From Escherichia phage RCIP0319, in the sequence record PV464738.1: DNA of 64,000 nucleotides; one strand, 5' to 3'. This document shows, piece by piece, positions 33,463-38,179 of the stretch (positions within the stretch are counted from its first letter, which is position 1; every line of letters starts with the position of its first letter). Both the position numbers and the translations under genes were made by a program. The notes beneath the pieces are model-generated. The model searched no databases, had not been told where the DNA came from, and worked only from the letters and a program-made list of their open reading frames with translations.

Positions 33463-34014
33463 TTATACAGTGTACGGAGTACCGTCTTGATTCAACCGCA
33501 CAATGAACTTAAGGTCGACACCGATGATTTCACGCGTATCAAAGATCACATAGTTGTAACGACGCTGACCAGCAATATTTGGGTTGGTGTGAGAGTCGGT
33601 CACAACTTCCTGCGCAACCTGAATGCCTTCTTCTTTAAAGAACTTGCGCCATTCAGCAAGTTCAGCGGCAGTCACGTGCATACCAAGATGGCTGACCTGA
33701 TTATCGTGCGCATCGAGCATGTCGATGTTTTCGTTGATCCAGTTGCAACCTTTTGTGTAGTCAAGAATTTCAAGTTCAAGAGGCTTGCAAGCGCCGCCAT
33801 CGGTGCCGTTGCCAGCCTGATAGTTGAATCGCAAGTCAGCTTCGTTGGTGCAATCGTCGCGACGACCTTTAAAGTCATCAGCTTCAAATACGCGACCAGT
33901 AGCAACAACGTGATCATGGAACCATTCTGTCAGGCCGATTTTAGCCAGAAAATCCTGTGCGCGCTGAGCATCTGGAATTGACAGGGCGATTTGTTCAATT
34001 TTAAAGTGTGGCAT
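33463..34014 (-). CDS. VOC (glyoxalase/dioxygenase-fold) family protein
   Basis: 183 aa; N-terminal FKIEQIALSIPDAQRAQDFLAKIGL and C-terminal HLGMHVTAAELAEWRKFFKEEG resemble paired VOC modules. Confidence 0.45.
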   Translation of the reverse strand: MPHFKIEQIALSIPDAQRAQDFLAKIGLTEWFHDHVVATGRVFEADDFKGRRDDCTNEADLRFNYQAGNGTDGGACKPLELEILDYTKGCNWINENIDMLDAHDNQVSHLGMHVTAAELAEWRKFFKEEGIQVAQEVVTDSHTNPNIAGQRRYNYVIFDTREIIGVDLKFIVRLNQDGTPYTV

Positions 34015-34034
34015 TTTGTTTCCTTAATTAAATA

Positions 34035-34205
34035 TTATTGATTAATTACTGTGTTGCCTTCTATGGAATAAGTCTCAATGGAGCCGACGCGCTCGTGGTT
34101 AATCTTTGCGTTTTCGATTCTTATTACTTCAAATCCAACGCCTTCTTGATCAATCTTCACTTCTGCCACGTCGCCAATCACTTCTACAACAACTTTGATA
34201 GTCAT
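34035..34205 (-). CDS. small protein (56 aa), translationally coupled to SDR gene
   Basis: ATG 3 nt after SDR stop; MTIKVVVEVIGDVAEVKIDQEGVGFEV...; below track length cutoff. Confidence 0.3.
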   Translation of the reverse strand: MTIKVVVEVIGDVAEVKIDQEGVGFEVIRIENAKINHERVGSIETYSIEGNTVINQ

Positions 34206-34208
34206 GAT

Positions 34209-34892
34209 TTATTTCCCAAATGGAATATCAGTACCAGACATAAAGCGCCATGCGCCCGTAATTAAGATATGGCGAATGAAGTCAGCAATTACTTGCGGCT
34301 CAGTCTCCAATCCGTTCATCAATGCCTTTTTCTGGTATTCAGCGGCATACTCAGGAGTCCAGCCGCGAGTCGCGCAAACAGCATCTTCAATCTGTTTGGA
34401 CATGCCAGTACCACGTAGCTTGTTAGGACTAATAGAGAATACCGTGATCCCGTATTTAGGCGTAAGCTCGTGAGCCATCTGCTTGCTAATCATAAGCGCA
34501 GCAGCCTTGGATGCATTATAACACAAGCTGGACGTCATAGGAATTTGCGCAGCGTTAGAAACGATATTGATCACAAAACCTTTGTTGTCGATAAGACTTT
34601 TCAGCGCGGCCTGAGTCGTGTTGACGAAAGAGAAGGCGTTGGTGTGCATAACGCGATTGAACTCTTCGTAGTTAACATCTTCGAACCAGTTGTTGGAGTT
34701 GACGCCAGCGCAGTTGATCAAGCCTTCTACGTCGTATTGAGAGAGAAGCTCTTTCATCTGTTTCGCGTTACGGATGTCATAGCCGTTCTCCAAATCAATA
34801 CCGACAACTTCATGACCGTAAGCGCCAAGGGTGTCAAAAATGGATTTACCAAGACCGGAATTGCAGCCAGTTACAACAATTACTTTTTTCAT
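34209..34892 (-). CDS. short-chain dehydrogenase/reductase (classical SDR)
   Basis: 227 aa; Rossmann motif TGCNSGLGK, NCAG, catalytic YNASK. Confidence 0.7.
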   Translation of the reverse strand: MKKVIVVTGCNSGLGKSIFDTLGAYGHEVVGIDLENGYDIRNAKQMKELLSQYDVEGLINCAGVNSNNWFEDVNYEEFNRVMHTNAFSFVNTTQAALKSLIDNKGFVINIVSNAAQIPMTSSLCYNASKAAALMISKQMAHELTPKYGITVFSISPNKLRGTGMSKQIEDAVCATRGWTPEYAAEYQKKALMNGLETEPQVIADFIRHILITGAWRFMSGTDIPFGK

Positions 34893-34913
34893 TTATTTAT
34901 CCTTTTTGGACTT

Positions 34914-35830: not shown

Positions 35831-36657
35831 CCTTTTGATACTCCATCTTTAGCAACTGGATTGTTGGTGATTGGCATCGCACTCCAAAACTGGATGCGCA
35901 ACTCTTCTTGCTGTGCCGTGGTATCCATCCAATCACGATACCAAGGGCAATGGGCTTTACCGTGACGAGGAAATGCGCACTTACCCATACCAATGCATTG
36001 CGGCTGTAGTAATGGATTCGCCCAAGGGTGCACCTTGAGGACTTCCGCAACCATTGCGCGGAATACTTCTTGATACTCTCCTTGCGTGCGCGTGCACAAG
36101 CGGTTTGACGCCATCTGCTGCAGCGTGCGCAAGTTGAACTTTGCCATGATATGCGTTTGCATATTAGAAGGCAACACGGCACGCGCATCTTGAATCTCTG
36201 CGCCAGCCGCGCGAAGTTCTTGATACAAAGCATCGATAGTCGCCATCGCATCATCCCACTTCTCTGCTAAGTATTGCTTTTGAAGTAAAGATTGGTGCTC
36301 TTCATCAGTCCCAAATGCTTCACATTGATCAATCAACTCTGGATTTTGGTGTGAGAATGCCTTCGGACGAATCGCATCAAAAGCAGAAGATTCCTGAGCG
36401 CGGCTGGTGCGTTCTTGATATGCGCCTGTGCGTGTGCGCACCATCTGATGGGTCATATTCTTTGAAACATCGGTGATGTCAAAGATATAGTCCACAAAGT
36501 CAAAAGGCGATTTGATTGTATCAAGCATGTATCGCCAGTGCTCTTGCTTCTCTGATTCTGTCATCTCAGAGACAGGCTTGCCAGTCATGCGCGTGTTCTT
36601 TGTTTCCAGCAAAAGGTCAAGTGCATCTTGGGTGTATCGAATTAATTCAACTTTCAT
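35827..36657 (-). CDS. thyX: divergent flavin-dependent thymidylate synthase (ThyX-like)
   Basis: 276 aa; ARAVLPSNMQTHIMAKFNLRTLQQMASNRLCTRTQ matches the ThyX C-terminal pattern; RTR-x7-SRA in place of canonical RHR-x7-S. Confidence 0.55.
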   Translation of the reverse strand: MKVELIRYTQDALDLLLETKNTRMTGKPVSEMTESEKQEHWRYMLDTIKSPFDFVDYIFDITDVSKNMTHQMVRTRTGAYQERTSRAQESSAFDAIRPKAFSHQNPELIDQCEAFGTDEEHQSLLQKQYLAEKWDDAMATIDALYQELRAAGAEIQDARAVLPSNMQTHIMAKFNLRTLQQMASNRLCTRTQGEYQEVFRAMVAEVLKVHPWANPLLQPQCIGMGKCAFPRHGKAHCPWYRDWMDTTAQQEELRIQFWSAMPITNNPVAKDGVSKG

Positions 36658-36671
36658 TTTAATTATTCCTA

Positions 36672-37118
36672 TTAACGGTAATTCACTAGTTGCTGATCAC
36701 CAGAGAAGGTGCAATGATAAACGAATTGTGCGTTATAAAGCAACTGAAAACTTTTCTTTGGTTCATTATTAGAACTCATTGATGTAAAGATTTCTGCACC
36801 AGAACGGTTTTCACCAATCAGATTGATAAAGTCGCCAGTTGAACGAGGTTGAACGAAAGTGAAACGTTGCATCCACGGAGTCCGGTTGGCACCTTTTCCG
36901 GTGAATCCTTGAATCTGAATATTCAGTCCTTCTTGCTCATTCACACCGATGTAAGTGGTAATCTTTGCACCAGTCGTTGCTGCGGTCTTCCCGTCCATCG
37001 CTTCGCAATCGTAAACAGCGATTGAATCGGAAGTGCGGATGGCAGCTTCAGTCGCTTCCATATACATGGTGCCGAGAATAGCAGTTGCGGCAAGCGCGAT
37101 TCCAGTGATTCGTTTCAT
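36672..37118 (-). CDS. secreted protein of unknown function
   Basis: 148 aa; signal-peptide-like MKRITGIALAATAILGTMYMEATEA; sits inside the enzyme cluster. Confidence 0.4.
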   Translation of the reverse strand: MKRITGIALAATAILGTMYMEATEAAIRTSDSIAVYDCEAMDGKTAATTGAKITTYIGVNEQEGLNIQIQGFTGKGANRTPWMQRFTFVQPRSTGDFINLIGENRSGAEIFTSMSSNNEPKKSFQLLYNAQFVYHCTFSGDQQLVNYR

Positions 37119-37183
37119 TTTCGTTTCCTCTATGAGTTCTGCTTCAATGATTAAAGTATACGCCCATTGAAGCAGAAAGCAAA

Positions 37184-38179
37184 TTATTTATTAGCAATAT
37201 AAGCAAATTTTTGATAGTTATTTGCTTTGATGAGTTTTTCAACTTCAACAAGGTCATGAGCGACGTCATCAAGCAAAATGTTGCGCCAGGTAGCAAATCG
37301 ACCGACACTAAACACGTTCAAATCCATGGTCAGCTGCAGGAGTAGGGCGTGTCGCAAGTCTTTCGGAATGTCGACAATCTTGCCATATTTCTGGTCGACC
37401 TTTTCAACTTCTTCAAGAGCGATGTCGCTCCATGAGAGGCCAAATGCCGTCAGCACTTCGTCAACTTCTGCGCGCAACTTGATGTCACGGTAACGAGTGA
37501 TGCCGCCAGCGGCTTCAACTGCAGCTTCACTCACGCTGACCAAAGGAATTGTTTCAATGATAAGCGTGTCACCAGTAATTGATGCGCGGTAAGTTCTGAC
37601 GGAGTAGTCAGGGAAGTAAATTGTCTGATACAAATCACACTTACGTTTAATCTTAAAGCGGTAAACGCGAATGTTTGCTTTATCAAATGAGAAATCAAGC
37701 TTTTGATCAATCCCAGCAAGCTTCATCATTACTGGCAGCGGCGACGTGTTGATGATTGGCGTCTCGCTATAGCCGCAAAGAGTATCAACCGGAGTATTAA
37801 AGAATATGCGGTCACCCAGTTTGTCGACAAGCTGATCATAAAAGTCATCAGGTGCAATATAACGCGTTGCAGTTTCAAGCTTCATGATTGAACGACTGCC
37901 AAACTGATTGGTGACCTTCACGGAATACATATTGGCAAGGTTGATTGGGCAATGGTCGTGGTAGTAGTTACCACGAAAATACACAGCCTTGTCAACGGTC
38001 ACAGCCTTAAAAGGGATTCCGGTAATACGGCTTACTTCTTCGCCGCGAAAGCGTAGCAACGCCTTGTGCTGTTGCACTCGTTCCCCTGCTTCGTACACAA
38101 CAGAGTTCGGGAAGTGACACGCTGTGATAAGTCCTGCCAGTCCGCCGCCGATAATCATTACAGGTTGTTTCATGTTCAT
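37184..38179 (-). CDS. FAD/NAD(P)-binding flavoprotein (UDP-galactopyranose mutase-like or amine-oxidase-like fold)
   Basis: 331 aa; N-terminal dinucleotide-binding VMIIGGGLAGL; C-terminal GRFATWRNILLDDV resembles the GR..Y.Y motif of Glf-type flavoenzymes. Confidence 0.5.
   Translation of the reverse strand: MNMKQPVMIIGGGLAGLITACHFPNSVVYEAGERVQQHKALLRFRGEEVSRITGIPFKAVTVDKAVYFRGNYYHDHCPINLANMYSVKVTNQFGSRSIMKLETATRYIAPDDFYDQLVDKLGDRIFFNTPVDTLCGYSETPIINTSPLPVMMKLAGIDQKLDFSFDKANIRVYRFKIKRKCDLYQTIYFPDYSVRTYRASITGDTLIIETIPLVSVSEAAVEAAGGITRYRDIKLRAEVDEVLTAFGLSWSDIALEEVEKVDQKYGKIVDIPKDLRHALLLQLTMDLNVFSVGRFATWRNILLDDVAHDLVEVEKLIKANNYQKFAYIANK

Follow-up and report, generated by a model that had tools for sequence, protein, structure and literature searches.

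The phages F8 and 14-1 of the genus Pbunavirus contain new thymidine-derived nucleosides, of 362 Da in F8 and of 390 Da in 14-1, which substitute about one quarter of T with a reported TG sequence context (Yee et al., bioRxiv 2025, PMC12191111). The 362 Da nucleoside was read as a tetrose sugar-alcohol derivative and that of 390 Da as a cyclised aldopentose derivative. Virion DNA of F8 was left uncut by BsgI, FspI, BmrI and ApaLI, as well as by NdeI, and was cleaved by EcoRI, and the authors recognised no known genome-modification genes in Pbunavirus (PMC12191111). A literature search gave no later paper naming such genes. Pbunavirus is the sister genus of Wifcevirus, which consists of E. coli myophages that are remote kin of the Pseudomonas PB1-like phages. 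Here we describe a block of seven genes at positions 33463-38179 of a stretch of 64,000 nucleotides from Escherichia phage RCIP0319 (PV464738.1), a member of Wifcevirus; this whole stretch is called the window. With a probability of roughly one half, we consider the block to be a phage nucleotide-modification cassette and the biosynthetic basis of the sugar-type thymidine hypermodification of PB1-like phages.

Two further sets of observations are close to this locus. Wifcevirus phages withstand most of the E. coli restriction systems that have been tried on them. Bas98-101, whose genomes each contain 36-38 sites for EcoRI and about 90 for EcoCFT_II, resist EcoRI, EcoRV, EcoCFT_I and EcoCFT_II by a mechanism that is not known, and plating of Bas99 on the EcoCFT_I, EcoRI, EcoRV and EcoCFT_II strains was at most about 2.5-fold from the vector control (Humolli et al., PMC11990801). 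In Bacillus phage SP-15, half of the thymine is replaced by 5-(4,5-dihydroxypentyl)uracil, which is ribose-labelled and made as a nucleotide, and the genes of gp129, an SDR, and gp130, a ThyX-like protein, overlap, the roles of both being hypothetical (PMC5977210). By arithmetic, the mass of 362 Da corresponds to deoxyuridine carrying a tetrahydroxypentyl chain, or to 5-hydroxymethyldeoxyuridine (5-hmdU) ether-linked to tetritol.

A gene block beside the replicase genes

Positions 33000-39000 of the window share 97.6% identity with Wifcevirus phage FEC19 and 92-98% with about 25 further genomes of this genus. Seven co-directional open reading frames (ORFs) on the minus strand span the block, with dnaQ and dnaE directly downstream. 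An earlier account made from the letters of the window alone, here called the sequence-only reading, had described seven tightly packed minus-strand genes immediately upstream of dnaQ/dnaE, and all seven ORFs, as well as the two replicase genes, lie where it had placed them. It had also proposed a comparison with related phages, and the block proved to be conserved.

For this comparison IMG/VR was scanned with a profile of the flavoprotein that the first gene of the block encodes. The scan yielded over 447 stretches that encode it, and 80 related loci were examined by tblastn. Synteny counts rest on the 54 loci kept, which reach from the flavoprotein to DnaQ and whose proteins are 40-99% identical to those of the window. 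The order on one strand is colinear in 54/54, i.e. flavoprotein > ThyX > HAD > DUF6378 > (SDR > VOC) > DnaQ > DnaE. ThyX and DUF6378 are each present in all 54, and the HAD half was detected in 50. SDR and VOC occur together in 35 of these loci, are both absent from 17 and are found singly in 2. The pair is present or absent inside both subclades of ThyX (see below), which implies that the two genes were acquired or lost jointly, and repeatedly.

The cultured phages PB1, F8 and 14-1 carry the orthologous core in the same order upstream of dnaQ/dnaE, in a short form without SDR and VOC. The long form is seen in Pantoea phage Kyle and Serratia phage Hera. Identity between the PB1-type proteins and those of the window is 39% for the flavoprotein and 48% for ThyX. 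Between F8 and 14-1 the flavoproteins are 97% identical and the ThyX proteins 94%; gp57 is only 81% identical, owing to a variable acidic linker. We searched the block for a difference in gene content that would separate F8, with its nucleoside of 362 Da, from 14-1, with that of 390 Da, and found none.

Outside these genera, Ralstonia phage PY059YO380 (40.6 kb) has the flavoprotein, ThyX and a stand-alone DUF6378 protein followed by DnaQ-DnaE, and in Rhizobium phage RHph_Y65 (207 kb) a stretch of some 6 kb, amid dUTPase and ribonucleotide reductase genes, encodes the flavoprotein, ThyX and a HAD-DUF6378 fusion. Records of cultured phages give the same number for the flavoprotein as for the ThyX clade in Pseudomonas (292), Escherichia (26), Serratia (9), Xanthomonas (6), Pbunalikevirus (4), Pantoea (3) and Vibrio (2), and unequal numbers in Rhizobium (8 vs 10). 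The hosts of the module are Pseudomonas, Xylella, Ralstonia, Rhizobium and enterobacteria, and the core list is kept in several hundred cultured and uncultured phages. Synteny, recurrence in unrelated phages and matching genus counts taken together point to more than inherited synteny alone. Judged by gene order and occurrence, the block is a conserved module and not a random moron set. The same pattern argues for a joint function of the flavoprotein, ThyX and DUF6378, be HAD present or not, and likewise for one of SDR with VOC.

The proteins of the block

The ThyX-family protein scores 103.7 bits with Pfam Thy1 (cut-off 24.8; 1.4e-29) and matches ThyX structures in a profile search of PDB (E 5e-8). 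With the NCBIfam equivalog TIGR02170 it reaches 79.7 bits, under the cut-off of 87.9. We aligned 64 orthologues that adjoin a flavoprotein gene, using T. maritima numbering. The equivalents of R78, R80, R90, R147, R174 and Q75 are kept in 64/64, and in 64/64 His53 is replaced by F, Tyr91 by V or A, and His79 by T, S or N. The earlier description of a divergent ThyX is confirmed, by a score that passes Pfam and not the equivalog and by loss of the His53/Tyr91 pair in the whole clade. In the window the motif is R74-T-R76-T-G-A-Y-Q-E-R-T84-S-R86-A, which departs from the full RHRxxSxxxxSxRY, and three solved ThyX sequences that were aligned with it all keep RHR...S...RY. One of these is from T. 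maritima, and the other two we take to be from T. thermophilus and M. tuberculosis.

His53 of T. maritima ThyX stacks on folate and flavin, and Tyr91 hydrogen-bonds His53 and is proposed to be the general acid in carbinolamine dehydration (PMC11940539). The His53/Tyr91 pair serves as the gate of the folate site and may, as has been proposed, aid the loss of water that forms the FAD-CH2-dUMP adduct, and mutation of Y91 makes flavin oxidation in the methylation reaction about 1000-fold slower (PMC11940539). From the conserved positions, the phage clade very probably still binds deoxyuridine monophosphate (dUMP) and flavin adenine dinucleotide (FAD). For an enzyme of this clade the textbook reaction is improbable, and loss of the conserved His53/Tyr91 pair leads us to infer an altered chemistry.

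Four cysteines of ThyX (C188, C221, C227 and C237) were found to be all-or-none, with all four in 31/64 orthologues and none in 33/64, independent of the presence of SDR and VOC. The set spans the core and the C-terminal extension of this half of the clade, which suggests a putative Zn or Fe-S site in one ThyX subclade.

For the flavoprotein, Pfam and NCBIfam searches gave no family. It belongs to a large family, phrog_4828, of about 1944 proteins (90% clustering), in which GxGxxG, E30, H38xxLRFR45, RAS (198-200) and GRFATWRN are invariant. The motifs GGGLAG and GRFATWRN picked out by the sequence-only reading are real and near-invariant in this family. An AlphaFold (AF2) model was obtained with a pLDDT of 90 and a pTM of 0.87. 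Foldseek against PDB gave the UDP-galactopyranose mutases (UGMs) 4dsh and 3ukh as top matches (TMq 0.62-0.65, E 3e-10 to about 1e-9), with renalase, monoamine oxidase (MAO) and protoporphyrinogen oxidase (PPO) close behind, all at about 12% identity. At 331 aa the chain is 40-170 residues shorter than those of UGMs (367-510 aa).

The candidacy of the flavoprotein as a true Glf was rejected. There is no Pfam GLF match, a profile search against PDB aligned the dinucleotide-binding motif alone, and hhalign with E. coli Glf aligned 20 columns around the GxGxxG motif only, with a probability of 3.6%. Since only this motif aligns with Glf, we speak of a UGM-like fold and not of a demonstrable Glf. 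The annotation of phage Mansfield names the protein UDP-galactopyranose mutase. In RefSeq the RHph_Y65 homologue (6950-7912 of its stretch) is named 'polysaccharide deacetylase' and the HAD-DUF6378 fusion of the same phage (12243-12965) 'phosphoheptose isomerase'; both names look like mis-annotations.

The third core protein is a fusion, with a HAD half covering residues ~1-165 and a DUF6378 half covering residues ~189-290. A HAD phosphatase-like domain had been proposed from sequence, and it is borne out by HAD_PNKP (34.9 bits, cut-off 27.6; 2e-8) and by motifs I-IV, which are invariant across 34 sequences (D13, D15, T71, K111, D131, D132). The proposal of a fusion also holds, and its C-terminal domain, previously called unrecognised, can be recognised as DUF6378 (PF19905), matched in 17/21 relatives. 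The AF2 model of DUF6378 is a 4-helix domain (pLDDT 93), for which the fold search gave no significant structural neighbour. A MazG-like all-alpha nucleoside triphosphate pyrophosphatase was considered, and fold and profile similarity fell short of this assignment.

The DUF6378 half (34958-35263) is identical or near-identical in proteins with HAD halves that are just ~50-60% identical, which, as far as the compared sequences go, indicates very strong constraint or domain-level recombination. Elsewhere in the window, a MazG-like nucleotide pyrophosphatase (25062-25655, minus strand; phrog_1992 5e-63, Pfam MazG only 0.011) adjoins the DNA ligase gene. It could be part of a nucleotide-pool control relevant to a modified-base pathway.

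The SDR is catalytically complete by sequence (adh_short 1e-31), with the motifs TGCNSGLGK (TGxxxGxG) and YNASK (YxxxK) that had marked it as a classical SDR. It has FabG-like matches in PDB (5e-13), reaches no NCBIfam model at its cut-off, and is filed by PHROGs under 'moron, auxiliary metabolic gene'. The SDR protein has been seen by mass spectrometry in ECML-117 lysate (PMC7048862), and the VOC protein in vB_Eco4M-7. The VOC/glyoxalase fold that had been assigned to the latter is supported at the level of the family, as 14/18 relatives match Glyoxalase_4 (best 2e-5); for the window protein itself, which stays under the cut-off (17.6 bits, cut-off 27, E=0.005), it is weak. Invariant residues in the VOC family are Q8, E80, E82, H109, H113, H142, Y153, Y155, D167 and K169. 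Neither the protein nor the VOC profile matched a PDB sequence.

The two remaining proteins, of 56 and 148 aa, gave no match in Pfam, PHROGs or NCBIfam. By tblastn the 148-aa protein was found in 3/80 IMG/VR loci and the 56-aa protein in 2/80, all of them Wifcevirus. The 148-aa protein had been called a signal-peptide protein. Its N-terminus, MKR followed by a 17-residue hydrophobic run with a hydropathy peak, is signal-peptide-like as read from the sequence, and the protein proves to be specific to the genus. In phages Kyle and Hera the 56-aa position is taken by small unrelated ORFs. Both proteins are probably genus-specific passengers outside any pathway.

Canonical thymidine hypermodification, reportedly described by Lee et al. 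(2018 PNAS; 2022 NAR), is said to involve a ThyA-type dUMP hydroxymethylase, a 5-hmdU DNA kinase, an aGPT-Pplase and pyridoxal-phosphate (PLP) or radical-SAM tailoring enzymes. Our enzyme scan covered 27 ORFs of the window with Pfam, of which the ten without a Pfam match were re-scanned with PHROGs; small ORFs were left out, and the window lacks some 4 kb of the genome. No ThyA-type dUMP hydroxymethylase, 5-hmdU DNA kinase or aGPT-Pplase was found among these ORFs, nor any member of the kinase, glycosyltransferase, PLP or radical-SAM families. Of the enzyme clusters common to both genera, the block alone could plausibly yield a pyrimidine with a sugar attached.

The earlier statement, made for the block, that no enzyme typical of known thymidine-hypermodification pathways was recognised stands for the kinase, PLP, radical-SAM and glycosyltransferase families also in the scanned ORFs, and a claim that the genome is free of any other modification enzyme has to be qualified by a DpdA/TGT-like gene on the plus strand (50054-50881). 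Its 275-aa product belongs to phrog_887 'queuine tRNA-ribosyltransferase' (E 4e-71) and has no Pfam or PDB sequence match. The nearest phage relatives are 61% identical, and one of them adjoins a VUT-family transporter gene. The gene is located within a variable region, of which other Wifcevirus genomes cover 44-62%. The DpdA/TGT-like family inserts 7-deazaguanines into phage DNA, and from this assignment the gene may give the isolate a second, block-independent DNA modification of 7-deazaguanine type. This gene cannot be the reason why Bas98-101 resist restriction.

Layout, hairpins and neighbouring genes

The coordinates are collected in Table 1. Neighbouring ORFs of the block overlap or are placed 3-20 nt apart, except at two gaps of 65 nt, each of which contains an inverted repeat. 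The ThyX stop overlaps the start of the HAD-DUF6378 gene by 4 nt. In phage Mansfield, terminators are annotated at the places of both terminator-like hairpins that bracket the block.

Table 1. Features of the block and the adjoining replicase genes, listed in the direction of the minus strand
Feature	Position	Strand	Remarks
Terminator-like hairpin at head of block, closes upstream TolA-like gene	38264-38284	-	8-bp stem, 5 GC pairs, T-run
FAD-type flavoprotein, 331 aa, core	37184-38179	-	UGM-like fold, phrog_4828 2e-149
Perfect 13-nt inverted repeat, 15-nt spacer, gap between flavoprotein and 148-aa gene	37137-37177		Second intercistronic hairpin
148-aa protein, signal-peptide-like N-terminus, Wifcevirus-specific	36672-37118	-	Family-less
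Divergent ThyX-family flavoenzyme, 276 aa, core	35827-36657	-	Pfam Thy1 1.4e-29
HAD (PNKP-type)-DUF6378 fusion, 290 aa, core	34958-35830	-	HAD_PNKP 2e-8; phrog_4889 1e-117
Palindrome, 15-nt arms, gap between HAD fusion and SDR	34914-34947		Overlaps weak promoter-like match 34957-34929
Classical SDR, 227 aa, accessory	34209-34892	-	adh_short 1e-31
56-aa ORF, genus-specific, begins 3 nt past SDR stop	34035-34205	-	No family match
VOC/glyoxalase-like protein, 183 aa, accessory, travels with SDR	33463-34014	-	Glyoxalase_4 sub-threshold
Terminator-like hairpin closing block, before dnaQ	33427-33446	-	8-bp stem, 7 GC pairs, T-run
dnaQ	32866-33408	-	Replicase context
dnaE	29963-32866	-	Replicase context

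The sequence-only reading had given the block its own promoter with a palindromic operator at 34914-34957. The palindrome is real (34914-34947), and is located inside the block, not at its head. The promoter-like match that overlaps it scores only 9/12, and promoter-like sites are rarer in the region than in shuffled sequences (4 vs 8.2). As RNA the palindrome folds into a strong hairpin (-22.1 kcal/mol, z = -5.6); it is unique within the window and kept only in Wifcevirus loci. An operator is thus unsupported, the element being genus-restricted, very stable as an RNA hairpin and surrounded by no enrichment of promoter-like sites. An intercistronic RNA element appears more likely, and at the least as likely.

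Upstream of the block, positions 38312-39157 on the minus strand encode a 'TolA-like' protein of 281 aa, with a long Lys/Ala/Glu-rich N-terminal part, a conserved C-terminal domain and no Pfam match. Its upstream place is kept in those IMG/VR loci that are enterobacterial or Pbunavirus-like, and tblastn was negative for it in about half of the 80 loci. The protein has been seen by mass spectrometry in phage preparations (PMC7048862). A gene pair encoding Pam3 gp34-like and gp33-like (DUF7307) proteins accompanies the DnaE-type replication module at 26228-27705 (minus strand), and the same pair is found with the replication module in the unrelated 40-kb Ralstonia phage PY059YO380 (3327-4643 of its stretch).

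Function of the block and known systems

The sequence-only reading had left two possibilities, i.e. a new modification pathway or a sugar-nucleotide or redox moron set. The conserved module and the hypermodification in Pbunavirus favour the first, by a link that is circumstantial. Under the modification reading, the ThyX-family flavoenzyme would bind dUMP and, by its altered chemistry, build a new carbon substituent at C5. The UGM-like flavoprotein, from its fold and co-occurrence, may handle the sugar or sugar-nucleotide part. The HAD-DUF6378 protein, with its HAD catalytic set intact, would dephosphorylate an intermediate or remove a competing canonical nucleotide, either being a putative substrate. 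Where present, the SDR/VOC pair would tailor the sugar by reduction or isomerisation and give lineage-specific variants, as their coupled presence and absence suggests. The modified nucleotide would end in virion DNA and block restriction enzymes, as seen in vitro for F8 and 14-1; for Wifcevirus, the unexplained resistance to restriction in vivo would fit with this.

Several points weigh against this reading. F8 and 14-1 form different adducts despite identical gene content of the block and enzymes that are 94-97% identical, so at least the specificity determinant may lie elsewhere. The TG context suggests an enzyme acting on DNA, and nothing in the block resembles a DNA-binding modifier. F8 DNA is EcoRI-sensitive, whereas Wifcevirus is EcoRI-resistant in vivo (PMC12191111, PMC11990801). 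Synteny beside dnaQ/dnaE could be plain vertical inheritance of the replication module, and ThyX together with a nucleotidase resembles an ordinary dTMP-supply module. The link to a sugar is a fold similarity at 12% identity, with amine oxidases and renalase scoring almost alike, and homology of SP-15 gp129/gp130 to the window proteins is undetectable. For Wifcevirus, a modified nucleoside is a prediction from the chemistry of Pbunavirus, and the role of the genes in modification is putative in both genera.

Some of these points lead to the explanation that we consider possible but distinctly less probable, in which the block is an ordinary nucleotide-supply module. A divergent but working ThyX would boost dTMP for very fast replication, the HAD would be a (deoxy)nucleotidase or a T4 PNKP-like 3'-phosphatase, the flavoprotein a redox helper, and the modification genes would lie elsewhere among the unknown ORFs, most ORFs of these phages having no assigned function. 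Such a module would fit a Thy1 score far over the Pfam cut-off with all dUMP-binding arginines retained, the constant joining of the block to replicase genes, the RHph_Y65 trio amid dUTPase and ribonucleotide reductase genes, and adducts that differ between F8 and 14-1 at the same gene content. That H53 and Y91 are lost throughout the clade is, however, hard to fit to a standard ThyX when mutation of Y91 slows flavin oxidation in the T. maritima enzyme about 1000-fold (PMC11940539). The score under the NCBIfam equivalog cut-off and the co-distribution of ThyX with the flavoprotein also argue against it, and the coupled SDR and VOC pair is left unexplained. We know of no requirement of ThyX for a partner flavoprotein.

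A moron set directed at the envelope is highly improbable. In such a set the Glf-like flavoprotein, the SDR, the VOC protein and the phosphatase would alter a sugar nucleotide or an O-antigen precursor of the host, e.g. for superinfection exclusion, with ThyX as a mere neighbour. UGMs are the nearest folds of the flavoprotein and the Mansfield annotation agrees with them, the SDR falls in the PHROGs moron class, a signal-peptide-like protein is found within the block, and the O-antigen is the receptor of Wifcevirus (PMC11990801). Yet the module is placed between replication genes and is kept in phages whose hosts differ greatly in their envelopes, and the flavoprotein, which has no sequence-level Glf membership, is tied to ThyX, whereas SDR/VOC and the secreted protein are missing from at least one third of the loci. 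No glycosyltransferase or nucleotidyltransferase was found in the ORF scans of the window. That the genes share no function, being packed by accident in a middle-gene region and each acting alone, is very unlikely: the 56-aa and 148-aa genes are lineage-specific fillers and the hairpin-bearing 65-nt gaps divide the block into sub-units, but colinearity holds in 54/54 loci, at protein identities as low as 40%, the core is found in two unrelated phage families, and SDR and VOC are all-or-none as a pair (single in 2/54). The modification pathway is therefore the reading that we favour over the sugar-nucleotide or redox set.

A more specific form of the modification reading is speculative and we consider it doubtful. 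In it, an all-flavin route without known precedent would supply PB1-like phages with a deoxyuridine of the 5-(polyhydroxyalkyl)- or 5-glycosyl type. UGM carries an opened sugar on flavin N5. The UGM-like partner might do the same, or otherwise deliver the sugar, and ThyX, without the His/Tyr pair that gates folate, would no longer end with hydride transfer to a methyl. C5 of dUMP would in this way receive a chain derived from a pentose or a hexose. HAD-DUF6378 would then remove phosphate, and SDR/VOC would determine how far the side chain is oxidised. If true, this route would account for the 362- and 390-Da nucleosides and provide a chemical tie to the dihydroxypentyluracil of SP-15.

The candidate gene list is the flavoprotein, ThyX and HAD-DUF6378, optionally with SDR/VOC, and it bears on modification in Pbunavirus as well as on restriction resistance in Wifcevirus. 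If the assignment holds, a flavin-based route would join the known ways of decorating thymine in DNA, and two large orphan families, phrog_4828 and DUF6378, would obtain a function. Pbunavirus (PB1-like) phages are among the most used in Pseudomonas phage therapy. The assignment would also help to predict which therapeutic phages are targeted by modification-dependent nucleases, e.g. END enzymes.

Compared with known enzymes, the flavoprotein has in common with UGM (Glf) the N-terminal FAD Rossmann motif, a C-terminal GR-x-x-x-W/Y-R motif and the best structural match. It differs in its 12% identity, shorter chain and absent Pfam GLF match, with amine oxidases, renalase and PPO scoring nearly equal. 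The phage HAD shares with T4 polynucleotide kinase/phosphatase the PNKP-type domain and an intact DxDxT...T...K...DD set, but has no P-loop kinase domain and is joined to DUF6378 instead. The Thy1 domain and the arginines binding dUMP and FAD are common to the phage clade and the ThyX proteins of T. maritima and M. tuberculosis; the clade differs at H53, Y91 and H79, has the 4-Cys set in one half of its members and scores below the equivalog cut-off.

Among modification systems, SP-15 resembles the proposed pathway in a polyhydroxy-alkyl group at uracil C5 and in an SDR gene overlapping a ThyX-like gene. We tried gp129, gp130 and gp131 as homologues of the window proteins and detected no homology, so that gp129 and gp130 differ in this respect from the SDR and ThyX of the window. 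In two SP-15 stretches (80-135 kb of 222 kb) no homologues of the flavoprotein, DUF6378 or VOC were found. SP-15 is therefore a chemical precedent only. The modification of F8 and 14-1 is closer, with core orthologues in the same order and a restriction resistance common to Wifcevirus, while these phages are without the SDR, VOC, 56-aa and 148-aa genes and F8 DNA is cut by EcoRI, to which Wifcevirus is resistant in vivo. Canonical thymidine hypermodification has in common with the system proposed here a thymidine target, partial replacement of T, a phage gene cluster near replication genes and protection from restriction. Its defining enzymes were not found in the window, where the C5 enzyme is of the ThyX (flavin) type and not of the ThyA type, and the phage block has, in addition, a second flavoprotein as an obligatory partner.

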